Part shown: in pieces, positions 7,916 through 39,470 of the stretch | Layout of the letters: every line of letters starts with the position of its first letter | How positions within the stretch are numbered: the first letter of the stretch is position 1 | DNA from: a virus | Virus record (IMG/VR): IMGVR_UViG_3300027666_000002 | Length of the DNA: 59,017 nucleotides | Strand: one strand, 5' to 3' | Notes under the pieces: generated by a model | Databases searched by the model: none | What the model was told of the DNA's origin: nothing | The model's input: the letters and a program-made list of their open reading frames with translations, nothing else | Translations under genes and position numbers: made by a program

Positions 7916-9772
7916 TCACGTGGTGCTGGTGTCCGTGGTCGCCGCGCTCTCGCCGGTCGGCCGGAGCTGCATCACCAGGTGGATGGACTCGATGCCCCGG
8001 AACGCCGTGGTCTCGAAGTTCTCCGAGAACGTCTGGAAGCGGTTCTGCCCGTTGAGGGTCGAGTCGCGCACGACGCCCAGGTCCAGGGTGCCGCCGTCGA
8101 GGTAGAGCCAGTCGCCCTCGCGGAACAGGAGGGTGGACACCACGGCGGTCTGGTGGCCGGCGCCGGTGATGCCGCCGTTGTTCGGCCAGTCCGGCACCTT
8201 GCTGTTGGTGGCCAGCAGCGTGTAGACCTGCGACGGCGTGACGATGTCGGTCGTCAGGTCCACGTCCGGCGGGTTGATGCCGTCGAGGTGCCACGTCACG
8301 TTGACGTTGCGCACCGCGAACCAGCGCGCCAGGTCGGCGTCCGCCGTCTCCAGGGAGGCCAGCGTGTCGCCCACCATCTGCATGGTGATGTCGGCGCGCA
8401 TCAGGTCGCGCATCCATGCCGGCGCGATGAGGCGCAGCGGCGCGTTGTCGTTGAGCCGGTGCACGCTGCGGTAGTACGCGACCATCTGGTCCATGGTGAC
8501 CAGCGCGTCGCGCGTCGCACCCAGGAGCTGCGTCGAATACACGTTCTTGGACGCGGTGGTGAGCTGGGTCAGCAGCCGATTCTCGGCGAACCGAGCATGC
8601 GCGACGTTCTGCGCCTGGATGGTCGAGTCCATCCACTCCGGGTCAAACCGGGTGCTCATGTTCGAGAACGTGAGGCACTGGTAGACCGCGTCGACCTCGG
8701 CGGTAAGCACACCAGGGCAGTCGATCTCCACGCAAGTCTTGGGGACCAGTGGGTCAGCCTCGTCGTTGGCCGGCGTCCACACGCCGATGCCGCCAGTCTG
8801 GGTGACGCCGTCGAGGGCCGGGCGGTACTGGATGCCGCCACGCTCGGCGCCGAAGCGGACCAGCGCGTCGCGGACCGGGCGGTCCACGTCGCCGATCGTC
8901 TCGATGTCGTACAGCGTCTGCAGCGGCGCACACAGGCCGGCAGCGGTCAGCGCGTCCTCGGAGTCCGGGCCCTGCGCGACGACGACCTTGTTGGCCATGT
9001 TGTCGAGGGCGTGGGTCCGGCGAGCTTCGCGGCTGGCCGCGTCCACCAGCTCCATGTTCGCGAACGCCGTCGCGCCGCGCCGCAGCGTCCGGTTCTCCGG
9101 GTAGTCGGAGCGGATCGTGGCGACCGCGTACCGCTCGTAGCCTCGGACGTTCAGGCCCGAGACGGCGCGGCCCTTGACGGCGAACGCGGTGGCGAGCTGC
9201 TCACGGGTGAGCTGCGAGCCGGGCGCGTAGTCGTCCAGGCCGCCGGAAGCGGTGGTCTTCAGCGTGACCTGCCCGAGGGCCGGGACGGCGGGCGCTGCTG
9301 GCTTGTTGGTGCCGCCGAGCGGGCGGCGACCGGATGCGGTCACGGCGGACTCCCCGGTGTCGGTGGGGCCGGCATCGCCCGAGTCGCCGGAATCGGTGCT
9401 GTCGCCCTCGGGGGCGTCCTGGTTCTCGGGGGCCTTGTCCGCCGGGGCGTCCTCGTCTGCAGGCGCCGCCTCGGGCTCGGGGGCCTTGTCCGCCTCCGGC
9501 GCGGCCTCGGGCGCGGTCAGTTCGTCCAGCTCGGTGAAGTGGGCGACCTGCTGGCCGGCGAGCTCGGCGCGGTGCGTCTTCTCGGCGTTCAGCTTGCGAG
9601 CCGCGTCGAGCAGCTCGCTGTAGCGGGTGACGCTGGCTTCGGTGGCGGGCTTGCCGTCGTGCTCGGCGCGAAGGGCTTCGGCCTCGGTGCGGATCGCGGC
9701 GAGGGCTTCGTTGATGGCCTCGGGAGTCGCGTCGCCGAGGTTGCCCAGAATGTCCGCATTGAACGCGGTCAT
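7916..9772 (-). CDS. major capsid protein with N-terminal scaffold-like (coiled-coil, Pro/Glu/Ala-rich) region
   Basis: 618 aa. N-terminal ~170 aa are low-complexity and coiled. The remainder is capsid-like (recalled family resemblance). Has its own promoter and the GGAAGGACC SD, and a hairpin downstream. Confidence 0.7.
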   Translation of the reverse strand: MTAFNADILGNLGDATPEAINEALAAIRTEAEALRAEHDGKPATEASVTRYSELLDAARKLNAEKTHRAELAGQQVAHFTELDELTAPEAAPEADKAPEPEAAPADEDAPADKAPENQDAPEGDSTDSGDSGDAGPTDTGESAVTASGRRPLGGTNKPAAPAVPALGQVTLKTTASGGLDDYAPGSQLTREQLATAFAVKGRAVSGLNVRGYERYAVATIRSDYPENRTLRRGATAFANMELVDAASREARRTHALDNMANKVVVAQGPDSEDALTAAGLCAPLQTLYDIETIGDVDRPVRDALVRFGAERGGIQYRPALDGVTQTGGIGVWTPANDEADPLVPKTCVEIDCPGVLTAEVDAVYQCLTFSNMSTRFDPEWMDSTIQAQNVAHARFAENRLLTQLTTASKNVYSTQLLGATRDALVTMDQMVAYYRSVHRLNDNAPLRLIAPAWMRDLMRADITMQMVGDTLASLETADADLARWFAVRNVNVTWHLDGINPPDVDLTTDIVTPSQVYTLLATNSKVPDWPNNGGITGAGHQTAVVSTLLFREGDWLYLDGGTLDLGVVRDSTLNGQNRFQTFSENFETTAFRGIESIHLVMQLRPTGESAATTDTSTT

Positions 9773-9778
9773 GCTCTC

Positions 9779-9909
9779 GGTCCTTCCAGGTTGGGGTGCG
9801 GAGAGCGTGACGCGGCTGGGCCGGCGGGCGCTGCGGCGCGACTGGGTCGGCGCGGCGTGGGGTGTTCTCCGTTAGCGCGAGGCTACGGGGCGGCGAGTAG
9901 GGGTGTCAC
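9779..9909 (-). promoter_or_regulatory. variant copy of the phage promoter plus long leader for the capsid operon
   Basis: Minus strand: GTGACA (9909..9904), 18-nt spacer, TAGCCT (9885..9880), then GGAGAACACCCC and SD GGAAGGACC (9787..9779) before the ATG at 9772. Confidence 0.5.
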
Positions 9910-9928
9910 GTGAGGTGTGCACACATGC

Positions 9929-9987
9929 GCGAAACCCCGGTCGCCTAGCCTCTTTCAGGCGGTGTGGCTCGCGTGCCGGGGTTTCGC
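9929..9987 (-). terminator. extended stem-loop after the 10657->10043 operon
   Basis: 12-bp perfect inverted repeat gcgaaaccccgg (9929..9940) / ccggggtttcgc (9976..9987) with an inner cgcct/aggcg helix. Confidence 0.5.
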
Positions 9988-10042
9988 TGTGGGGGCCCGC
10001 CGCACTGGGGGTTCAACGGCGTGCGCCGGCTCCGAGGGTAGC

Positions 10043-10351
10043 TCAGGCTAGGGACTTCCGGGCCCGCTTGAACTCCTCAGCCTTCGGACAGGTCTTGTAG
10101 TGGTTGGTGTGCAGCCCGACTCCGGCGGCCTTCATTCCTTCGCGCTGCCCTCGGGCCTTGATGGGTCCACCGCGCAGGGCTGGCCGGTCGGCGGTGGGGT
10201 CCAGCTCGACAAAGTAGGTTCCGACCGGGATGGCGACCGGGTCGAGCAGGGTCCACTTGGTGGTACCGACGCGGTCGCCGGGCACCTTCACGAAGATCAC
10301 GTCTCCCTTGCATCCCTTGCAGGTGCGGATGAGCTGGGTGGGGATGTCCAT
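10043..10351 (-). CDS. hypothetical protein, possible zinc ribbon (CxxC ... HxxxC)
   Basis: 102-aa ORF, RBS GGAGGTGAAGTAG before the ATG, GC3-rich. Confidence 0.7.
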   Translation of the reverse strand: MDIPTQLIRTCKGCKGDVIFVKVPGDRVGTTKWTLLDPVAIPVGTYFVELDPTADRPALRGGPIKARGQREGMKAAGVGLHTNHYKTCPKAEEFKRARKSLA

Positions 10352-10356
10352 CTACT

Positions 10357-10491
10357 TCACCTCCGGAAGGGGATGCCCCACCAGCGGTGAGTGCGGTCGT
10401 GCTTGTGGTCCCAGCCTGGCCAGCCTGGTCCAGTGCAGCGGACGTGCGGCCAGCGGCGTCGTCTGACGCTGCAGCGGTTGAGCGGGGGCAT
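10357..10491 (-). CDS. small Arg/Trp/His-rich hypothetical protein (44 aa)
   Basis: Hand-found ATG at 10491 with GAGGAGATGACC upstream. GC3-rich. Below the ORF-track size cutoff. Confidence 0.4.
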   Translation of the reverse strand: MPPLNRCSVRRRRWPHVRCTGPGWPGWDHKHDRTHRWWGIPFRR

Positions 10492-10501
10492 GGTCATCTC
10501 C

Positions 10502-10657
10502 TCACGGTCGGACGGCGTTCCACCAGTGGCCCCAGGCAGCCAGCCCGAGGGATCCGTAGAGCCCGAGGTGTAGCCAGAATCGGGTCCACAGGGCGAGGCC
10601 GGCGGGGCGCTGGCCGTGGGGCCAGGCCCAGCGGGTGGCGCGTCGTAGGGTGGTCAC
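10502..10657 (-). CDS. small membrane protein (51 aa), apparently leaderless
   Basis: The GTG at 10657 lies 6 nt after the -10 TACAGT, so it sits at the predicted +1. Hydrophobic core LALWTRFWLHLGLYGSLGLAAW. Confidence 0.4.
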   Translation of the reverse strand: MTTLRRATRWAWPHGQRPAGLALWTRFWLHLGLYGSLGLAAWGHWWNAVRP

Positions 10658-10663
10658 AGACGC

Positions 10664-10692
10664 ACTGTACCCCATGGTGACGGTGGGGTCGA
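10664..10692 (-). promoter_or_regulatory. variant phage promoter, divergent from 10738
   Basis: Minus strand: TCGACC (10692..10687), 17-nt spacer CCACCGTCACCATGGGG, TACAGT (10669..10664). Same spacer/-10 architecture as the canonical copies. Confidence 0.45.
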
Positions 10693-10737
10693 CTAGATGC
10701 AGTTATCCACAAGTCATCCACAGGTGTGGACTGCCAC

Positions 10738-10806
10738 TTGACACCCACTAGCACATGGGGTAGCGTTCTACCTGTCAGCAAGGAACAACCCCCCGAGGGA
10801 AGGACC
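10738..10806 (+). promoter_or_regulatory. phage promoter + conserved leader cassette
   Basis: TTGACA (10738), 17 nt, TAGCGT (10761). Leader AGGAACAACC (10781) and SD GGGAAGGACC (10797) before the ATG at 10812. Confidence 0.7.
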
Positions 10807-10811
10807 ACACG

Positions 10812-11303
10812 ATGGCCACCTACACCGCTTCCGACTTCTGCCAGGGCCACGGCGGCGGGCGCGAATGCACCTACTCCCCCGAGGTGGACGGGTGCCTGCA
10901 GCACGGCGAGGACTTCGATCACGGCGTGATCTCCTACTGCGACGGAACCTGCACCGAGGCCATCGAGGAGTACCGCCGCTACCTGGAGGCTCACGGCCTC
11001 TTCGACTCCCTGCGCGCTAGCACCAGCTACATCACCCTGGAGGTCTGGGACTCCACGTTGTCCTATCGGGTCGTGTTCGAGGGCGCGGACGCGGAGGAGT
11101 GGGCCCTGGCCTACATGGCGGCGCGGCCGTCGCTGCACTTCACCGAAGCGCCCGAGGCTCCCAACCACCTGCCGGCCTTCCCTGGACTGGCGGCCAAGCT
11201 GTACCCGACGTGCCACCACGGCCTGGCTCTGGACCTGTGCATGGACCCATACGGGGAGAACCACTTCGGCACCCGTGAGCAGGAGCTTGCCCAGGGCTGG
11301 TGA
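10812..11303 (+). CDS. hypothetical protein (Cys/His-rich N-terminus)
   Basis: 163-aa ORF directly behind a promoter/leader cassette. Confidence 0.8.
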   Translation: MATYTASDFCQGHGGGRECTYSPEVDGCLQHGEDFDHGVISYCDGTCTEAIEEYRRYLEAHGLFDSLRASTSYITLEVWDSTLSYRVVFEGADAEEWALAYMAARPSLHFTEAPEAPNHLPAFPGLAAKLYPTCHHGLALDLCMDPYGENHFGTREQELAQGW

Positions 11304-13114: not shown

Positions 13115-15820
13115 TCACACCGCGCCGGGGCGGTCCTTCTTCCACTGGGCCACGGCGGCGCACGCCTCGGCGCGGCTGCCGGGGTTGACGTCCTGGTGGC
13201 CGGGGAAGTTGAGGTCGCCGGTGGCGCACATCTTCTTGGCCGCGTTGACCGCCGAGGCGATGGCGTGCGATTCGGTCATGCCCTTCGCGCGCAGGTGTTT
13301 CGAGATGCGCTTGATGAACGGTGGCAGGTGCAGCTTCTTCTTGCCGGCGGCCGTCAGCGTGTCGCCGTCGCCGTACTCGGTGAGCTGGGCGTTGAACCAC
13401 GGGTGGTCGCCGTCGAGCGCGAGCACCAGGTTGGCGATGTGGTCGTCCTGGATGTCGCCGAGGCTGGGCACGATCTGGTCCAGCTCGATGGCGAACACGC
13501 TCTGCACCTCCGCGCACACGCGGGCCAGGGCGGCGTCCGCGCGGTCCTGCTGCATCTGTGGGCTCTGCTGCAGGCTTCCGGCGGCCAGGATCACCTGCGG
13601 CTCGCCCGAGGCCACCAGCGCCTTGAAGGGCACCGGGTAGCCAGGTGCGTTGACGGCGAGCGCGGCCAGCAGCTCCATCGATCCTCGGATACGGCGCCAG
13701 TCGCCCGACAGCGCGGCGCCGCGCGCCTTGTATTCGGTGTCGGCGTCCAGGCCGGGCATCAGCCTGCCGGCCACCCAGATGCCGTGCTCATCCTCGCCTG
13801 CGGCGAGTTCCATCGCGGCCGTACAGGTGTTGTCGTAGTGGGCGGCCACCTCCGCCAGCGACATGCCGCCACGAGCAGGGGCGTGCCCCCCGACGCCGAG
13901 CGCCTTGGACACCGAGCCGTAGCCGACCGGGACCGTGACCACCTCACCGTCAGCGGTGCGGGCCCGGCATGGGTGCACCCGGAAGTATGCGTAGTTGGCT
14001 GCCGACCGGGGCGCCGTCCGGCAGCGATCGACGATGCCAGTGTGGCAGGTGTTCCACGCGGCCAGGTGGCCGACGATACGGCCGTCGTCGTCGATGGTGA
14101 TCGGCGTGGGCTCGGTCAGCCCGGGATCGGCGAACCACTCCGCTGGCGGCAGGTCGGCAGCGCTGGCCACCAGGACGGTGGAGCCGCCACCCAGCGGGTA
14201 GTCCGTGACGTCGTCGCCGATCGCGACGCGCAGGCGATCGAAGGTGACCGGGCCCGTGTAGGTGAGCTGGGACGGGTCCAGACCGTAGCCGGCGGTCACG
14301 TGCGGGACGTAGGGCTCATGCTGATCGGGGAAGGTGACGTCACCGATGGCGTTGCGGACCTGGCTGACGACGTCGTTGCGCAGCCAGTCGATGTCGATGC
14401 GGTCGCCGGTGCCGTCGAGCAGGTAGACGGTGGCCGGCTGGTGACCGTCGTCGCCGTTCGGGTTGAACACCGCCCACGAGAATATGCCGGCGTCGAGCGG
14501 GCCCTTCTGGGCCGCGCTCTTGGACATGCTGGTGACGCCGCCGGCCTCGTCCGGGTCCTGGCCGGCGGCGCGCATGCGCTCCGCCTCCTCCTGCGCGGCC
14601 GCCTCGAAGTCGGTCAGCCGGCGGGCGACGCGGTGCACGGCCGCGATCATGTCGGCGTCCCAGGTGTCGATCTGGTCGCCGAGGTAGGCCAGGGTGAGGT
14701 GCAGTTCGCTGGCAGGGTCTCCGCCGGGGGCCACCAGCATCTGCGGATTGGCGGGCACCAGCGCGACCATGCCGGATGTGGAGTAGTCCTGGACGGCCGG
14801 CGGCTCGCCGGGGTCGAACACGCCGTCGTCCTCGAAGTCGAACCAGGCGCGGTCGCCGGTGGCGGCCTGCTTGCCGGCAGTCTTCAGGGTGCCGTCGGAG
14901 TTCCACGAGTCGGGGATCTTGTCGGTGAGCTTCAGCCGCTTGGCCTGCTTGATGATGTGGCGGCGCACCGCGTCGCGGTCTTCTTCGGTGCCGGATGGCC
15001 CACCTGCGCGACCCACCGCCTTGATGGCCTTGTCCAGGTCGGCCTCGGTGTCGATGGGGTATCGGCCGCCCGGCATGGCGTGACCTGCCTCGGCAGAGGC
15101 CTTCCGCTTGGCCGCCGAGACAAACTCGTGCAGGCCGTCCACGCTGAACATGTCGTCGACCTGGCACGTGTGGCAGAGGTCGCCGAGTTCGCTGGACAGC
15201 CACCCGGGTGCGCGCACGCCTGCGGCGACCATGGCGTCCTGGCCGTCATCCGGGGTGAGCGTCTCGCCGTCGAGGGTGATGTAGGCCCCGGCGAACGCGG
15301 GGATCCCCACCAGCGTGGTGGCGGCGATGACGCCGCGCTGCATCGAGATGCGGCTGTAGTCGGACTGGTCGGCCAGCTCGCCGTTGGGGCCCTGGAATTC
15401 GGCCACGACCTCGGTCATGTCGACGCTGTTGCCGCGTAGGGCCCGGTCGTACACGAGCTGGTAGGCGCTCTTCGCCGGGGCGGCTGGCACGTCCTTGTAC
15501 ATCCAGCCGCGCCCGACCCACACGAACGTGCCTTCGGGCAGCGTCTCGTCACCGTAGAGCTGCGCTTCGGGGCCCGGGATGCGCTCCGCGCTGGTGATGG
15601 CGCCGACGTGCCAGGTGGCGGCGTCGCCGGTGTCGCCGTGCGTGGACCGGGTGGCTGCGAACAGCGGGATGGGCAGGTCGCGGACTTCGATGGTGCCGGG
15701 CTCGATGTATCGGCGGTCGGAGGTTTCGAGGCCTTCGATCACCATGACGGGCAGCACGATGGGCGCGGCGTCGGCCGGGATGTCGCCGGGTGGCGCGGTG
15801 TCGATTGCTGGGGCGCTCAT
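13115..15820 (-). CDS. capsid maturation (prohead) protease / scaffold-like multidomain protein with embedded 2H-phosphoesterase-like motifs
   Basis: 901 aa. N-terminus LPVMVIEGLETSDRRYIEPG...LPIPLFAATRSTHGD...HVGAI and a later GHLAAWNTCH block are protease-like (recalled). Two HxT motifs: LHLTLAYLG (~14690) and PHVTAGYG (~14290). Confidence 0.65.
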   Translation of the reverse strand: MSAPAIDTAPPGDIPADAAPIVLPVMVIEGLETSDRRYIEPGTIEVRDLPIPLFAATRSTHGDTGDAATWHVGAITSAERIPGPEAQLYGDETLPEGTFVWVGRGWMYKDVPAAPAKSAYQLVYDRALRGNSVDMTEVVAEFQGPNGELADQSDYSRISMQRGVIAATTLVGIPAFAGAYITLDGETLTPDDGQDAMVAAGVRAPGWLSSELGDLCHTCQVDDMFSVDGLHEFVSAAKRKASAEAGHAMPGGRYPIDTEADLDKAIKAVGRAGGPSGTEEDRDAVRRHIIKQAKRLKLTDKIPDSWNSDGTLKTAGKQAATGDRAWFDFEDDGVFDPGEPPAVQDYSTSGMVALVPANPQMLVAPGGDPASELHLTLAYLGDQIDTWDADMIAAVHRVARRLTDFEAAAQEEAERMRAAGQDPDEAGGVTSMSKSAAQKGPLDAGIFSWAVFNPNGDDGHQPATVYLLDGTGDRIDIDWLRNDVVSQVRNAIGDVTFPDQHEPYVPHVTAGYGLDPSQLTYTGPVTFDRLRVAIGDDVTDYPLGGGSTVLVASAADLPPAEWFADPGLTEPTPITIDDDGRIVGHLAAWNTCHTGIVDRCRTAPRSAANYAYFRVHPCRARTADGEVVTVPVGYGSVSKALGVGGHAPARGGMSLAEVAAHYDNTCTAAMELAAGEDEHGIWVAGRLMPGLDADTEYKARGAALSGDWRRIRGSMELLAALAVNAPGYPVPFKALVASGEPQVILAAGSLQQSPQMQQDRADAALARVCAEVQSVFAIELDQIVPSLGDIQDDHIANLVLALDGDHPWFNAQLTEYGDGDTLTAAGKKKLHLPPFIKRISKHLRAKGMTESHAIASAVNAAKKMCATGDLNFPGHQDVNPGSRAEACAAVAQWKKDRPGAV

Positions 15821-16278
15821 TGCGGCCTACCTCCCCATCCGTGCCTACGGATGCTGTCGCCGATGGTTTCCGGGCTATCCGGACGCTGATCTTGGCTTGG
15901 TTGAGCCGAGTTCTGTTCCTGTGTGGACTGTCGCATACTGGCGGACAGCTCGGACAGGGCCGCGCCGAACGGGTCGTGCGGCTGGGCGATCGCACGCACC
16001 ATGGCGCTGATGCCGTCTTCGATGTGGTCGCGGGCGCGCACGCACCAGCGCACGTCCACGCCGGGCCGCAGGCGCACCGAGGCCCAGACGCGGGCTATCT
16101 GCTCCTGCAGCGCCTTGATGGCGTTGATGGTGTCGACGTCGTCGGCCGGCAGGTCGCGGTAGCCGCGTACGCCCTGCGCGGTGGGGCTGGGCCCGTAGCT
16201 CGGCTGGCCGGCTGGCTCGGTTGGCGGTTCGTCGACTGGGCGAATGGGTTGACCGTGCCCGTCGGTCAGGTACGTCAT
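15817..16278 (-). CDS. hypothetical protein
   Basis: ATG at 16278 overlaps the upstream TGA (ATGA). N-terminal part of ORF-track 15817..16467 trimmed. Confidence 0.65.
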   Translation of the reverse strand: MTYLTDGHGQPIRPVDEPPTEPAGQPSYGPSPTAQGVRGYRDLPADDVDTINAIKALQEQIARVWASVRLRPGVDVRWCVRARDHIEDGISAMVRAIAQPHDPFGAALSELSASMRQSTQEQNSAQPSQDQRPDSPETIGDSIRRHGWGGRPQ

Positions 16279-29872: not shown

Positions 29873-30285
29873 CGCGTGGCCGCCTGTCGTGCATCGCGCA
29901 CGGCCGCGCCGAGCTCGGTCAGGATGTGCTGCGGCCGGCTGAATTCGTCGTAGGTTGGCGCCTTCTCCAGCAGCCCGCGATTCATGAGCGCGAGCACGGT
30001 GCCCACCTTGACGGTGTCGCTCGTGCGAACGTGCAGGACGTCGGGGTCAGGGGTGCGCTCGGCGCGGTAGGCGTCCACGGCCTGCTTGCAGACGCGGGAT
30101 CCCTCGCAGTAATCGCTGGCGCCCATCCGGTCGCCGCGCAGGCTCTCGTGTCCTGGGCAGTAGTCGGCCACGGTGTCGCCGGTGAGGTCGTCTCGGTTGA
30201 CGGTGCCCTGGGCGGCGAGCAGGACTGCGGCCATGGGGACTGTGAGCTTGCTGGCGAGTAGCTGGGCGCTGATGGCCTGGCTCAT
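29869..30285 (-). CDS. hypothetical protein
   Basis: ATG at 30285 behind a cassette. 3' part of ORF-track 29869..30381. Confidence 0.75.
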   Translation of the reverse strand: MSQAISAQLLASKLTVPMAAVLLAAQGTVNRDDLTGDTVADYCPGHESLRGDRMGASDYCEGSRVCKQAVDAYRAERTPDPDVLHVRTSDTVKVGTVLALMNRGLLEKAPTYDEFSRPQHILTELGAAVRDARQAATR

Positions 30286-30292
30286 GATCTTT

Positions 30293-30356
30293 GGTCCTTC
30301 CCGGGTGGGTTGTTCCTGGCATCCACAACAGTACCCACCGCGACGGTGGGTGTCAA
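30293..30356 (-). promoter_or_regulatory. phage promoter + leader cassette
   Basis: Minus strand: TTGACA (30356..30351), 17 nt = CCCACCG-TCG-CGGTGGG dyad, TACTGT (30333..30328). GGAACAACC (30316..30308), GGGAAGGACC (30302..30293). Confidence 0.7.
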
Positions 30357-30373
30357 GTAGTTGGGGCGGCCGC

Positions 30374-30501
30374 GTCAGCAACGGCCAACCCGCTGTCCCC
30401 CGCCACGTGACCCGCGTGCAACGGGTCCGCCGAGCTTTCGCGGCGACCCCTCGCGGGGTGGGCCACTACTCCTCACGGCGTGCACGGCGTGGCGTGCTGA
30501 C
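30374..30501 (-). ncRNA. ~128-nt multi-helix rod domain (3' module / terminator of the ncRNA locus)
   Basis: Nested closing helices: 30374..30380/30495..30501 (7 bp), 30401..30407/30488..30494 (7 bp), 30415..30420/30481..30486 (6 bp). Inner hairpins include ACCCC-GCGA-GGGGU at 30446..30459. No ORF. Confidence 0.45.
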
Positions 30502-30506
30502 GTACG

Positions 30507-30577
30507 CGCTTGGGGCCGGAGTCGAACCGGCGTCCCGGGGGGTGAGCCCGTGCATGAACCACTCTGCTATCCCAAGC
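30507..30577 (-). tRNA. tRNA-like element (anticodon loop CUCACCC, nominal CAC/Val; non-canonical)
   Basis: 7-bp perfect acceptor GCUUGGG/CCCAAGC. T arm GCCGG-UUCGACU-CCGGC. GG in the D loop, U33. But the D stem is 3 bp, the anticodon stem is 4 bp plus an A.G pair, position 37 is C, the variable region is 3 nt, and no CCA is encoded. Confidence 0.5.
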
Positions 30578-31368
30578 TCCCGGTCGCTACGGCAGTCCAC
30601 GCCTCACGTGGCCGGGTTTTTCCATGATCTGGAAGACGACACGCCTGGCAGGGACAGGCCCAGGCGGTGTCGATGCCGCCTGGTTATGGCGTCGCTTGGC
30701 CGATCTCGACCCAGCCGCCCTTGCGCCACACGATCGAGAGGTGACTTGGCATGCCGTCAAGCTGTGAGCCCGGAGTGGCCGGTTCCCTGCGGCCCGACCA
30801 CTCCGGCAGGACCGTTTTTTCACCGTGGAGTCCCGCCGCCACGGGCGCAACCCCTGACCTCTCCGACGGGGTATGCGCCTCTCCTCGGGGAAGTAGGCGC
30901 ACCGGGGGAAAGGAAGGGGCGCCCGCTGGAGGTGGGAGAGTTCAGGGCCCGGTAGCTGCCAGCTTGTACCGGGCAACCCCCGGCTTCCAGCGCTCACGCG
31001 CTCGTAGCTGGCAGGGGAGCTGTGGATGGTCCGTCGGCACGCCCGGCGACTTGCGCTCCAGGGCCCTGTTTCACTTCAGGGAGAGGTGTAGCGACGGGGG
31101 TTCAACCCGCACCTGGAGACCATCACTCGATCCCTCGATCAACGTGCCGGGCTCATTGCCAGCGGGTCCTACTCGTGTGAGCGACAGCAGGCCTTCGCGG
31201 TGTGACCCGACCCCGTCCGTAGGGATCTTGTCGCGGACGGGGGGTCGGGACCGATGGCGATCGACCAGACCGTTTGGTCCCGTCCGCTGATCTTGAAGTT
31301 GTCAAGTTCCGGGCGCCGGAGGGGTACCTGACTCGGTCCCCATCGAGGATTGAGTTTCCCCTCCGGCA
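30578..31368 (-). ncRNA. candidate large (~790 nt) structured non-coding RNA, family unknown
   Basis: Driven by promoter 31375..31403. No SD/ATG context and no GC3-biased ORF. Many long nested helices (10, 14, 9, 9 and 8 bp; coordinates given in findings). Ends at the tRNA-like element. Confidence 0.5.
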
Positions 31369-31745
31369 TGACCGACATTACCCATGGCTGCATGGGGTGT
31401 CAAGCCGTCACGCTGATTCGCTGGCACCAACTTCGCCACGACCAGCCCCACCAGGTGGTCCTGTATATCCAGGAGGACCACCAGTCGCCCGAGGCACGGT
31501 GGGCACCAGTACCTCTCGCCGGTCATCTCGCTGCCGGCCCAGGTCGGACGCACGTGCGTCCACAGGCGCGCGACGTCGAGCCGCACCTGGTTCAGCCCCC
31601 TGTGCACGAACACTCCACACAGAGGTGCGTTGTCCTGGCTGCGCTCCTTCCGGCCTGGCCGGAAGCCCGGCAGGTGCAGGTGAATGCGACCCGGTCCCGG
31701 CGGCTCCAGGGCAACCAGGGCCTCTAGGCCAGGCGTGGGGTTCAC
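31302..31745 (-). CDS. hypothetical protein (last ~30 codons are probably incidental read-through into the promoter/ncRNA)
   Basis: GTGA overlap at 31742..31745. GC3 is high down to ~31400 and drops after the embedded promoter. Confidence 0.55.
   Translation of the reverse strand: MNPTPGLEALVALEPPGPGRIHLHLPGFRPGRKERSQDNAPLCGVFVHRGLNQVRLDVARLWTHVRPTWAGSEMTGERYWCPPCLGRLVVLLDIQDHLVGLVVAKLVPANQRDGLTPHAAMGNVGHAGGETQSSMGTESGTPPAPGT
31375..31403 (-). promoter_or_regulatory. phage promoter driving the ORF-free locus
   Basis: Minus strand: TTGACA (31403..31398), 17 nt with the CCCATG-CAGC-CATGGG dyad, TAATGT (31380..31375). Not followed by the GGAACAACC/GGAAGGACC leader. Confidence 0.65.
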
Positions 31746-36709: not shown

Positions 36710-37148
36710 CCTTGGCTTGCAGCTTCGCCACCACCCGCTGCACCTGCTGCGAGTCCGGGGGGAATCGCCGTCCCGCCGGGGAGCGCCAGTAGCCGTCGTC
36801 CTGCAGCGTCCAGGCCTCGGGCGGGTGCGCGGCCCGACGCTGCACGGGCCCGCGTCGCCGCTGCATCTTGGTGCCGGCCAGCACGTCGTCCGGCACATGC
36901 TCGGTGAGCCGGTCCTGGTCGTAGTTCTGGCCCTTCAGCATCGCGTAGGAGGCAACCTCGACCTCCACGAAAGCATGTGCCAGCGCGGTGGCCAGCTCGG
37001 TGGCCGTGCGCGCGTGCCCTGCCCAGCCGCGCGCAAGCGGGCTGGAGATGCGCACACCACCCTCGGGAAGGATCTCCGCCTGCAGAGGGATCATGCGGAC
37101 GCGCTGGCCGCGCCGCAGGCCGGGCAGACGCTGGTTTTCGTACATCAT
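36678..37148 (-). CDS. hypothetical protein
   Basis: ATGA overlap with the terminase stop at 37145..37148. The C-terminus ..VDTHRQDGVA* is encoded by the next promoter. Confidence 0.65.
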   Translation of the reverse strand: MMYENQRLPGLRRGQRVRMIPLQAEILPEGGVRISSPLARGWAGHARTATELATALAHAFVEVEVASYAMLKGQNYDQDRLTEHVPDDVLAGTKMQRRRGPVQRRAAHPPEAWTLQDDGYWRSPAGRRFPPDSQQVQRVVAKLQAKVDTHRQDGVA

Positions 37149-38758
37149 CGCCCCCTGCTGTAGGCACTGGTGGTGACCATCTGTTGGCCGCGCCCGAACT
37201 GGTGGCGTGGGATGTTGGTGGACTGGGCGGTGAGCAGTTCGCTGCCGAGGCCGTGGCCGTCGAGGTAGAGCACGCAGTAGACAACCGCGTCCATGCGGTC
37301 GGGGGATTCGGCCTCGTCGGTGGTCCAGACGCACAGGGTGTCTTCGAGCTTGGTCAGGCTGCCGACGTGGTGTGCGCGCCCCTGCTCGTAGACGGCTGAC
37401 ACGGGCTCGGCGCGGACCCGCTTGCCCTTCTTGGCGCGGATGGCCTCGACGGGCAGGGCGGGGTGGTTGATGTGCCGGCAGGCGGTGTGGATGCTGTTGG
37501 GGATCCATTCGCCGCCGTTGTTGACCTCGACGATGACGGTGCTGGCTTCCCAGTCGTCGTAGGCCTGAATGATCTTGGAGACAACCATGTCCGGCGTGTC
37601 GCGGATGGTGTAGTCGGCCAGGACGTAGAAGTCGCCGTTGGATGCCGCCCCGGTGACGATGATGCCACTCTCATCGGCGTCCTCGGTGCTGGTGACGGCC
37701 GGGTCCACGCCGATCACCACACGGGTGATCGTGATGTTGAGCAGCTCCAGCGCGGCGATGATGGCTCGTGCCGTCTCGCGGCACTCCCTCATCGAGCGTT
37801 CGAGCGTCTCCGGATTCGTGTCCGACCAGTTGGCCTTGTGGTCGAGGTGGATGCGGTCACGGTCGATCTGCTCGCGCTTCCACAGGGCGCCCGGCATGTC
37901 GTCCAGGAGGTCGCCGCCGAGTTCCTGCCTGCCCAGCCGAGTGCCGTCGTACTTCTTGTGGAGGCTGCGCAGGGTGACGTCGGGCAGGTTGGCTGCGTTG
38001 TCGTCGGTGGTGCCTCGGCTCTTGGCGCAGCGCGGGTCCGCCAGCATGTCCTTGATGACCTGCAGCGGCAGTGGGGTGCTGGACGCGACCAGGCGGGGAT
38101 GCTTTCCGAGGCGCAGGCCGAAGCGCAGCATGTCGATGGCGTCGAGGGCCTTCTTGACGACCTGGGCGAGTTCTTCCACCCAGGCCATGTGATGTTGGGG
38201 TCCCCGCAGGCGGGCGGGCTTCTCGCCGCTGAACAGCTTGGCGCGTGACTTCGAGGCGGTGATGATGAGCTCGCCGATGGACCGGTTCCACGTGTAGTCG
38301 CGGTCTACGACCAGGCCCCACCGGTCGAAGATCGCCAGCAGCCCTGACTCGCCCTCGACGCAGGTGTCACGCGCGTCGGCGTAGGTGGGGGCGAGGATGG
38401 CGATGCGCCACCGCTTGTTGAGCACCAGCGCGGCGGCGACCTCTTCGGCGCAGGCGCGCGTCTTCCCGGTGCCTCGACCGCCGAGGTACAGCCAGTCATC
38501 CCAGTCGCCGGAGGGGGCCCGCTGCTCGGGTCGACAGGCCGCGCAGGCGTGGCACTTGTTGCAGAGCGCGCCGTGGATGTGACAGGGCTGGTCGGGCCCC
38601 TGCCAGTTGGGGGCCATCGACGGGTCGGGGTGTTTGGTGGTGTCGGGGTTCTGGCAGTCGGCGTCACGCCACTGGCCGATGTACTTCAGGAACGGTGGCC
38701 GGATGCGCTTCTGGCTGGAGACGGCGAACCGGTCAGCGAGTCCGGCGAAGGTGGCCAC
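37145..38758 (-). CDS. terL: terminase large subunit
   Basis: 537 aa. Walker A LGGRGTGKT. Terminase-like nuclease half. Follows the small subunit. Confidence 0.85.
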   Translation of the reverse strand: MATFAGLADRFAVSSQKRIRPPFLKYIGQWRDADCQNPDTTKHPDPSMAPNWQGPDQPCHIHGALCNKCHACAACRPEQRAPSGDWDDWLYLGGRGTGKTRACAEEVAAALVLNKRWRIAILAPTYADARDTCVEGESGLLAIFDRWGLVVDRDYTWNRSIGELIITASKSRAKLFSGEKPARLRGPQHHMAWVEELAQVVKKALDAIDMLRFGLRLGKHPRLVASSTPLPLQVIKDMLADPRCAKSRGTTDDNAANLPDVTLRSLHKKYDGTRLGRQELGGDLLDDMPGALWKREQIDRDRIHLDHKANWSDTNPETLERSMRECRETARAIIAALELLNITITRVVIGVDPAVTSTEDADESGIIVTGAASNGDFYVLADYTIRDTPDMVVSKIIQAYDDWEASTVIVEVNNGGEWIPNSIHTACRHINHPALPVEAIRAKKGKRVRAEPVSAVYEQGRAHHVGSLTKLEDTLCVWTTDEAESPDRMDAVVYCVLYLDGHGLGSELLTAQSTNIPRHQFGRGQQMVTTSAYSRGR

Positions 38759-38771
38759 GGGTGGGCCCTGT

Positions 38772-39470
38772 TCAGGCAGGGATCACCGAGAGGTGCTTGG
38801 CGAACGCCACGGCGCACTTCTCGCGTGTGTCCAGGTTGAGGACGGGGACGCCAGCTTCATCGAGGGCCGCGAAGAAGCCCTCTTCGATCATCGCCAACTG
38901 GCGTTCGGTGACGGCGGCGAGCCGCTCATCGATGTTGAGCCGGGCGATCTTGAACAGGAAGTCGCCGGCCCGGTCCATGGCGCGCTCGAACAACTGGACG
39001 ATCGCGCGGGCGGTCTCCCCGTAGTCGGTGGAGTACTCCAGGCTGTCAAGTTCCTCGACCTTGACGCGCATGGCGTCTTTCCAGGCGATGACCTCTCCCG
39101 CGATGGCTTTGAGGGCGTTCAGCGGGTCGTGGACCGGGCCCATGTCGAACTGGGACACCATGCCCTGCAGCTCCTCGTGGACGCGCTCGCGGGATTCACG
39201 CTTCTTGGCCTGCGGGCTGGTGCCGCCGTGCATACGGCACCGCTTCTGGTTCTTGACGGGGGAGCTGTGGCAGATACCGCCGGGCGCCTTGCGCGCCTTG
39301 GCGCTGCACCGAGGCTTCCCGTTGGGTCCGTACAGCACGCTGTCGAGCACGCGGTAGCCGTCTCGGATGGGCTCGCCGCTGCGGTCGGGGAACTCGATGC
39401 GATTGCGGTGGGCGTCGAGGTCGATGGGCTCGGGGAGTTCGCCAGGGTCCTGGTCGTCGTGGTCGCTCAA
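38772..39470 (-). CDS. terS: terminase small subunit
   Basis: 232 aa, TTG start with AGGAGG upstream. The ...KNQKRCRMHGG... motif is recalled from actinophage small terminases. Directly upstream of terL. Confidence 0.65.
   Translation of the reverse strand: MSDHDDQDPGELPEPIDLDAHRNRIEFPDRSGEPIRDGYRVLDSVLYGPNGKPRCSAKARKAPGGICHSSPVKNQKRCRMHGGTSPQAKKRESRERVHEELQGMVSQFDMGPVHDPLNALKAIAGEVIAWKDAMRVKVEELDSLEYSTDYGETARAIVQLFERAMDRAGDFLFKIARLNIDERLAAVTERQLAMIEEGFFAALDEAGVPVLNLDTREKCAVAFAKHLSVIPA

Follow-up and report, generated by a model that had tools for sequence, protein, structure and literature searches.

A modular, pseudoknot-rich structured RNA with tRNA-like elements in uncultured soil phages, very probably a new family

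The known RNAs most similar to the one reported here are GOLLD and ROOL. Both are encoded by phages or prophages, often near transfer RNA (tRNA) islands, with many pseudoknots and with conserved regions placed around a linker that is not conserved and that, in GOLLD, in some cases holds phage tRNAs. Each of the two assembles into a nanocage made of RNA only, of unknown function (PMC12286853). We analysed a viral DNA stretch of 59,017 nucleotides (nt), IMG/VR record IMGVR_UViG_3300027666_000002 (the whole of it is called the window), which carries on its minus strand, at about 31368-30374, an array of structured non-coding elements. This locus very probably represents a new, uncatalogued family of large, modular, pseudoknot-rich structured phage RNA. 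An earlier note, made from the letters alone, had proposed a large structured non-coding RNA at this place and had been reminded of GOLLD and ROOL. The proposal holds: the locus is conserved in related contigs, its helices show compensatory covariation, G-U pairs point to one strand, and no coding signal is present. The reminiscence also stands, as both layout and tRNA setting are alike.

GOLLD and ROOL are closest in resemblance, with unrelated sequence. As in GOLLD, which measures about 0.8 kilobases (kb) or more, there are many helices and pseudoknots, a tRNA neighbourhood and a variable linker, here of 138-567 nt with tRNA-like modules in contigs L217, L221 and L231; tRNA-Glu genes follow the core. 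The setting is also of the GOLLD type, since the contigs have a terminase and carry tRNA-Glu or tRNA-like elements in or after the array. In contrast, only the 3' region is universal in GOLLD, while here a 5' domain and a 3' core are both conserved; the sequence blocks are unrelated, and the hosts or habitats differ, the present RNA belonging to high-GC soil phages. ROOL resembles the locus in being a large ornate RNA of phages and prophages that is often found close to tRNA islands; it has several pseudoknots and an internal linker that is not conserved, and no protein partner of it is known. Neither its sequence nor its helix pattern is related to the present ones, however, and at about 580 nt it is an RNA of low-GC Firmicutes and rumen samples.

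Rfam 15 at curated thresholds, run on the window and 13 related loci, returned tRNAs only, so that the locus cannot be detected as belonging to any curated family; the earlier note, too, had been unable to assign one. Even with the threshold relaxed to E<=10 (window 30200-31600) and E<=5 (seven relatives), there was no match to GOLLD (RF01998), ROOL (RF03087), OLE, HEARO, raiA, tmRNA, RNase P, 6S or group I/II introns, and ARAGORN called no tmRNA. The noise of these lax scans, all far below gathering scores, was rejected (Tymo_tRNA-like at E 0.017, flavivirus xrRNA at E 0.28, a plastid ycf2 leader, sX12, Acido-Lenti-1 and microRNAs). We found no RNA like this family described in the literature searched. 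The accessible part of a survey of more than 10,000 viral structured RNAs gives motifs of about 67 nt on average and describes no large RNA of this kind (PMC10690425).

As for the distribution of the locus, BLASTN against 50,697 GenBank phages gave no match. Relatives were found via the flanking proteins, via an invariant 17-21-mer of the RNA, and via homologues of the upstream protein that were traced to their contigs. This gave 13 distinct versions of the locus, window included, from viral and metagenome contig collections, and all relatives are metagenomic phage contigs of about 58-60 kb. An exact-pattern scan with the 17-mer CCGTCGGAGAGGTCAGG hit 112 metagenome and 93 genome stretches. The real lineages among these number four, in viral and metagenome collections only; the matches in the genome collection were all chance and were discarded. 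Nothing new was added in IMG/VR by a gapped J1-J2 pattern, a 15-mer of J2 (both blocks are listed below) or a tRNA-like pattern. The family is rare, being found in one lineage of soil phages.

The features of the locus, all on the minus strand and in the order of the transcript, are the following.

31375..31403, minus: phage sigma-70-type promoter of the RNA, TTGACA-17-TAATGT (motif, conserved position)
31315..31367, minus: M1, hairpin P1, GCCGGAGGGG (31358-31367) with CCCCUCCGGC (31315-31324), in the minimum-energy fold
31298..31310, minus: J1, invariant single-stranded block GGAACUUGACAAC
31233..31287, minus: M2, domain P2, closing helix of 9-10 base pairs GCGGACGGG/CCCGUCCGC (strands 31279-31287 and 31233-31241) and conserved interior loop CCGAUCGCCA
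31129..31227, minus: J2-M3-J3, in which P3 (GAUCCCU, 31221-31227, with AGGGAUC, 31129-31135) encloses P4, P5 and a variable hairpin
31025..31124, minus: M6, optional multi-branch domain closed by GAUGG/CCAUC
30947..31014, minus: M7, optional stem, hairpin and pseudoknot: stem S1 (31006-31014 with 30956-30964), hairpin H1 with a GUGA loop (30989-31003), pseudoknot S2 (30967-30974 with 30947-30954)
30848..30946, minus: universal 3' core (covariation, covariance model): Pa, CUCUCC (30935-30940) with GGAGAG (30879-30884); Pc, GGGCGC (30919-30924) with GCGCCU (30895-30900); Pd, CCCC (30868-30871) with GGGG (30851-30854); pseudoknot Pb, ACCUC (30929-30933, between Pa and Pc) with GAGGU (30857-30861, in the loop of Pd)
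30617..30847, minus: 3' extension specific to the window, with helices 30794-30807/30770-30783 and 30675-30683/30660-30668 in the minimum-energy fold
30579..30616, minus: conserved hairpin directly 5' of the tRNA-like element (CCCGG...GGCGUGGAC...CCGGG)
30506..30577, minus: tRNA-Val-like element, anticodon CAC, C at position 37, no encoded CCA (ARAGORN)
30374..30501, minus: trailer domain with three helices: T1, GUCAGCA (30495-30501) with UGCUGAC (30374-30380); T2, CGCCACG (30488-30494) with CGUGGCG (30401-30407); T3, hairpin CCCG-UUGCACG-CGGG (30411-30425), with the loop UUGCACG invariant
30328..30356, minus: next promoter copy, then the conserved leader of the downstream gene (ATG at 30285) with its Shine-Dalgarno sequence

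Hairpin M1/P1, J1, M2, the J2/J3 helices and the 3' core are present in every version. In terms of folding energy, the 791-nt sense RNA has a z-score of -4.3, against -3.0 for the antisense. The helices were scored on alignments of the relatives and again, as a slid control, with their partners shifted. The results were as follows.

5' domain (MAFFT, 13 sequences): 28 pairs, 94.5% paired (33-47% slid), 7 both-side changes, covariation 0.269 against <=0.062 slid
Core Pa/Pb/Pd (MAFFT, 12 sequences): 15 pairs, 100% paired, 2 both-side changes, covariation 0.135 against <=0.071 slid
M7 (MAFFT, 8 sequences): 22 pairs, 96.6% paired, 9 both-side changes, covariation 0.315 against <=0.042 slid
Core Pa/Pc/Pd (model-fitted, 14 sequences): 15 pairs, 97.1% paired, 5 both-side changes, covariation 0.385 against <=0.067 slid

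The model-fitted core alignment leans to the structure of its model, and its counts are less independent than the MAFFT ones. In M7, the observed compensatory count was reached by 0 of 500 shuffles, with two of the compensatory pairs lying in pseudoknot S2. Shuffle controls overstate significance because all sequences come from one phage lineage; the slid-partner controls and the diversity of helix sequences in P2, Pc and M7 are the stronger evidence. Furthermore, a covariance model of the core scores 80-132 bits, with exactly one match in each of the family loci (14/14), while 61 GC-rich control loci, all containing the 17-mer, stay at or below 20.7 bits. The functional strand is the minus strand, since G-U pairs seen in P5 (U-G, 10/13 sequences), P4 (5/13) and M7-S2 (4/8) would be A-C mismatches on the other.

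The 5' domain combines variable helices with nearly fixed single-stranded blocks. The P1 loop bears a conserved GUCAGG motif, and the P1 stem reads GUCGGAGGGG/CCCCUCCGAC in contig L002, a compensatory change; in nine relatives P1 is replaced by a second hairpin type. Within J1, CUUGACAA is invariant and the flanking bases nearly so (n=13 sequences). Its CUUGAC is complementary to the GUCAGG of M1 and to that of the 3' core, a pairing beyond the reach of a covariation test because both sides are invariant. In P2, both partners have changed in 6 of 10 pairs, 96.9% of the cells are paired, and eight different helix sequences occur. J2 (CAAGAUCCCUACGGGGCGUGGACAGACUGG) and J3 (GAAGCGGUGCGCCYGUCCGAGGGAUC) together form P3, P4 and P5 around the variable hairpin; P3 is 94.5% paired, and P4 92.3%, with CG<->UA compensation in addition to its G-U pairs.

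In the 3' core, Pa follows the family consensus CUCUCY/RGAGAG and has two compensatory pairs (UA<->GC, UA<->CG). The Pc segment, folded alone, forms a terminal closing helix in all sequences folded (12/12), and these helices differ in sequence. For pseudoknot Pb, direct reading of contig L225 shows a matched insertion on both strands, with ACCUC/GAGGU becoming ACCCUC/GAGGGU. The window-specific extension that follows the core has no homologous segment in the relatives, hence no comparative support for its helices.

The linker between the 5' domain and the core is built from optional modules (M4, M5, M6, M7, M8, M9 and M10), with M6 and M7 present in the window. M6 is found in 10 of 14 aligned sequences and includes a T-arm-like hairpin, GCGGG-UUGAACC-CCCGU (31094-31110), whose stem covaries (GCCGG/CCGGU, GCGGG/CCCGC, GCAGG/CCUGC). 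M4, in the linkers of L217, L221 and L231, is a tRNA-like module with an oversized fold and a 10-base-pair acceptor-type stem. M9 is an H-type pseudoknot, ACUCUC-S1-GCCGCCGG-S1'-GUGAUCGAC-A-GGCGGC, with a covarying S1 (CCCUGG/CCAGGG, CCCGCGC/GCGCGGG, CUCGUCC/GGGCGAG). It occurs inside the large RNA, in the linkers of L002, L077, L220, L223, L227, L230 and L231, and also between two tRNA-Glu genes in L217 and L221. Two resemblances were set aside as within chance for this amount of sequence by our own rough estimate: an 11-nt identity of M8 to the 16S decoding-site sequence, and a likeness of CACCUCC / GGAGAGGU to the anti-Shine-Dalgarno/Shine-Dalgarno pair.

The complementary stretches that the earlier note had picked out by eye are all present in the window, and comparison with the relatives separates them. 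P1, the outer stem of M7 and the GUGA hairpin are conserved; the remaining ones are either not conserved or have no comparative support. The helix drawn between 31234-31249 and 31206-31219 overlaps the 3' strand of P2, competes with it and is absent from the relatives. A hairpin at 30969-30983 cannot form in most relatives, where the conserved pairing is the pseudoknot 30967-30974/30947-30954, so what had been drawn as a three-way junction is actually the stem, hairpin and pseudoknot of M7. The helices at 30798/30769 and 30676/30660 fall in the window-specific segment, without comparative support. The expectation that the RNA runs into a tRNA-like element was right, in that ARAGORN calls tRNA-Val(CAC) at 30506-30577(-), below the Rfam tRNA threshold. 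The 3' limit had been set too early, since conserved structure continues past this element to about 30374.

The locus (30357-31368, minus strand) is non-coding. The GC frame plot is flat from about 30300 to about 31340, between the promoter copies at 31375-31403(-) and 30328-30356(-). Stretches 30196-31125 and 31111-31470 (930+360 nt) make it the longest part of the genome without codon-position GC bias, the next one measuring 570 nt. Aligned with its relatives, the locus has a column variability by phase of 0.19/0.20/0.23, against 0.19/0.20/0.31 in the adjacent upstream gene, with no third-position excess and no 3-nt periodicity. The lengths of most indels between relatives are not divisible by three, stops occur in all six frames in most relatives, and no open reading frame (ORF) at the locus is conserved among them. 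The locus does not behave like a protein-coding gene, in which a conserved frame, third-position variability and in-frame indels would be expected. The earlier note had suggested setting covariation against codon periodicity in homologous loci; done here, the helices covary and the periodicity is missing. It had also dismissed five ORFs within the locus, which do exist, carry no coding signal and are not conserved. Its description of the stretch as ORF-free needs one amendment: coding signal is indeed lacking, but the upstream ORF 31745..31302 formally enters the stretch, crossing the promoter, P1 and part of J1. The tail of this ORF (LTP...MGNV) is translated promoter, and shorter homologues do without it.

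The array opens with the promoter copy at 31375-31403, TTGACA-17-TAATGT, as the earlier note had read it. It is one of eight copies of the motif TTGACACCC-N-GGGTAnnnT in the window, where 0.53 are expected by chance, and a copy stands in the equivalent place in 13/13 versions of the locus. The transcript would start at about 31368, judging from this promoter. The copy at 30328-30356(-) marks the 3' limit of the non-coding array, and no intrinsic terminator was detected on the minus strand at the locus.

Next, the core is always followed by tRNA or tRNA-like elements in the relatives. Up to two genuine tRNA-Glu genes (TTC, CTC; 52-61 bits) lie downstream of it, together with more structured modules. 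In the window, tRNA-Val(CAC) is the single tRNA call of ARAGORN. This element falls short of a canonical tRNA (RF00005 gathering score of 29 bits, 7-nt loop, U33, purine 37): it has no RF00005 match at gathering score, its best match in the clan being tRNA-Sec at 22 bits, and its anticodon loop reads CUCACCC. The Val-like cloverleaf and the covarying hairpin that precedes it are found in 6 of 13 versions, at the following places besides the window.

L002, 7245-7315: Val-like cloverleaf
L005, 3090-3160: Val-like cloverleaf
L216, 5365-5436: Val-like cloverleaf
L221, 5579-5650: Val-like cloverleaf
L225, 5709-5780: Val-like cloverleaf

The stem of the preceding hairpin (30579-30616 in the window) reads CCCGG/CCGGG, CCAGG/CCUGG or CCCUG/CAGGG across the six sequences. 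In the cloverleaf itself, conservation and covariation are seen in the acceptor, D and T arms, and the anticodon loop differs in each of the six (CUCACCC, UACCCG, CUAACCC, CGACAA, CUAACAC, CCACCAG); most have an NAC anticodon, and two of the loops are not 7 nt long. Rfam scores the element as a tRNA at 34-42 bits in L216, L221 and L225. Either the cloverleaf is a tRNA-Val that drifts, or it mimics a tRNA. Conserved arms with a drifting anticodon loop would fit a role in processing or mimicry better than strict decoding, and in some relatives the element may still be a decoding tRNA-Val.

Past the cloverleaf, the three helices of the trailer have compensatory variants in eight relatives, as seen by comparison. 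Two further observations concern this part of the array. Other tRNA-like elements have an acceptor stem and T arm with an insertion of about 100 nt in the body, at L002:7330-7480, at the 3' ends of the arrays of L217, L223 and L225, and mid-array in L220; ARAGORN and Rfam call none of these oversized elements. Also, the motif GGCGUGGAC is seen on the minus strand both in J2 of the relatives (window about 31205-31215) and in the hairpin 5' of the tRNA-like element (about 30592-30602), which may be a shared protein-binding or tertiary-contact site.

The window has 68% G+C and looks like the complete genome of an uncultured tailed phage; near-identical and related contigs measure 58-60 kb. The large terminase (37145-38782, minus) reaches no more than 41% identity with that of any GenBank phage, hence the phage has no cultured relative. 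The genes flanking the locus are on the minus strand, as is the RNA. Related contigs keep the same gene order, with a DUF7694 gene, a small gene and a conserved Zn-motif gene, and then a gap without called genes that opens with the promoter in every contig and runs for about 0.9-1.8 kb from gene end to next called gene. The protein always directly upstream of the RNA (window 31302-31745, minus) has invariant H22, H24, C43, C81 and C84 (HLHLPG...C...WCPPC), residues that suggest zinc binding. It matches no Pfam or PHROGs family, and its AlphaFold model (HxH...C...CxxC), with a mean predicted local distance difference test score of 62, was too poor for a fold search. Elsewhere on the minus strand (13115-15826), a 903-amino-acid protein has a borderline match to PF13563 of the 2H / 2'-5' RNA ligase superfamily (E 4e-6; 27.3 bits for a cut-off of 27), and such a 2H-like protein could bear on the repair of RNA or tRNA ends.

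The eight promoter copies of the window lie at 10738+, 11322+, 24707-, 28302-, 29424-, 30356-, 31403- and 35810- (motif scan). Those at 30356(-) and 29424(-), with their counterparts in relatives, precede a conserved leader (AACAACCCA..GGGAAGGACC..ATG), and look like repeated promoter-plus-leader cassettes. Such cassettes are reminiscent of the start-associated sequences of some mycobacteriophages. The repeats probably break metagenome assemblies, for example at the ends of contig L043. This contig spans almost exactly the RNA array, but it was not accepted as a sign of transcription, since both its ends coincide with repeated cassettes, at which assemblies break. Lastly, the second-longest stretch without codon-position GC bias (9872-10763, from 9661-10200 and 10306-10875) lies between divergent genes, with the promoter copies 10738(+) and 11322(+); a further non-coding element or the ends of the genome could lie there.

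Several points weigh against a single large RNA, or limit the family. The related sequences are only 13, all from one phage lineage, and the 17-mer scan found no prophage copy among 185,579 genomes, and no host thereby. The measure of both-side changes in the 5' domain was reached by 52 of 500 shuffles. The J2-J3 interior has diverged in the window, which also has no tRNA-Glu genes and lacks several modules found in relatives. We infer the transcription start, the RNA ends and any processing from motifs and layout. Between the 5' domain and the 3' core no covarying pair was found, the long-range search having given invariant candidates only, and a single particle made of the two is accordingly a proposal. 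Finally, optional mosaic modules also suit an operon of separate small RNAs. In that case independent small structured RNAs and tRNA-derived elements would be co-transcribed and cut apart, with no single large RNA, and the missing long-range pair would be expected. The modules are indeed optional, mosaic and locally folding, M4, M6 and the Val-like element are tRNA-like or have T-arm hairpins, and pseudoknot module M9 recurs between tRNA genes. We nevertheless regard this, the main rival, as rather unlikely. The 5' domain and 3' core co-occur in fixed order in 13/13 versions, no canonical tRNA or recognisable processing site separates them in 10/13, and about 100 nt lie within P3 and P4, which organise a multi-helix domain; conserved ends around a variable linker are, moreover, the layout of GOLLD and ROOL.

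That same layout, with the shared genomic setting, size class and pseudoknots, would also suit a highly divergent member of GOLLD or ROOL missed by the Rfam covariance models. This is improbable, as neither RF01998 nor RF03087 matched at the relaxed thresholds and the conserved blocks are recognised by no model. A different kind of function would be in the DNA replication of a phage or prophage, with the RNA serving as origin or primer. The available part of the source describes, for cluster A mycobacteriophages without RepA, a promoter-driven non-coding RNA origin of about 0.4-0.5 kb adjoining parABS (PMC7157519), and the present locus is likewise promoter-driven and non-coding, as such loci are in actinobacteriophage genomes. 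That part of the source mentions no ornate conserved structure or tRNA association for the origin, and a primer does not explain the conserved pseudoknots, tRNA genes and tRNA-like modules here. Pfam scans of 30 ORFs, including 10 flanking ones, showed no ParA or Rep domains, and among the ORFs tested no parABS, RepA or integrase adjoins the locus; ERF and SSB, genes of recombination and replication, are about 13 kb away on the other strand, and there is no GC-skew switch at the locus. We give a replication RNA a very small chance. A cis-acting leader (riboswitch or attenuator) of the downstream gene, or a small-protein locus, is a shade less probable still. The locus does lie upstream of a same-strand gene with no terminator between, yet that gene has its own promoter and conserved leader, and tRNA genes intervene in relatives. 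High-GC shadow ORFs of 70-260 amino acids are present, but the lack of codon periodicity, the stops in every frame in most relatives and the indels argue against small proteins, and the sole apparent conserved peptide is the translated promoter.

Taking the locus as one large structured RNA, a mode of action like that of GOLLD and ROOL is a tentative proposal, possible rather than expected. It is suggested by analogy, because the locus has two conserved domains, a hypervariable linker with tRNA-like modules, a phage origin and tRNA neighbours. Host RNA polymerase would most likely start at the 31375-31403(-) promoter and transcribe about 1 kb without an intrinsic terminator. The transcript would hold, in order, the 5' domain (31129-31367), a linker of M6 and M7, the core (30848-30946), the extension, the tRNA-Val-like element and the trailer. 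RNase P and RNase Z would most likely recognise the tRNA-like element, as they would the tRNA-Glu genes at the equivalent place in relatives, and cleavage there would define the 3' end and free a large RNA of about 790 nt. Processing punctuated by tRNAs has a precedent in MALAT1-mascRNA and in tRNA-linked transcripts that RNase P and RNase Z cleave. By the same token, a cloverleaf that directly closes off a long structured RNA on its 3' side could let tRNA enzymes set the end of that RNA here. The freed RNA could then act in trans as a folded, possibly multimeric, RNA-only scaffold that is connected, during infection, with the biology of tRNA or of translation. For all of these steps, from transcription and processing to action in trans, quaternary assembly and target, we infer from the arrangement of the locus.

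Structured RNAs above about 500 nt, other than ribosomal RNA, introns and RNase P, are very rare. The few that are known, GOLLD, ROOL and OLE, have recently turned out to form unprecedented RNA-only assemblies of unknown function. The locus might be an independent class of giant phage RNA beside GOLLD and ROOL, a self-assembling RNA-only particle whose linker and flanks carry tRNA or tRNA-like cargo, although we hold this as speculative and rather doubtful. If true, an ornate RNA plus tRNA would be a recurrent, convergently evolved phage strategy, here in high-GC soil phages, which would for example shield, deliver or decoy tRNAs against host defences that target tRNAs. The compact pseudoknotted core of about 100 nt and the natural module-swap variants suit studies of structure and function, and the family is directly testable in vitro without a host. 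A new family would be a third data point for a shared logic: phage-borne, tRNA-linked, with conserved domains and a swappable linker.

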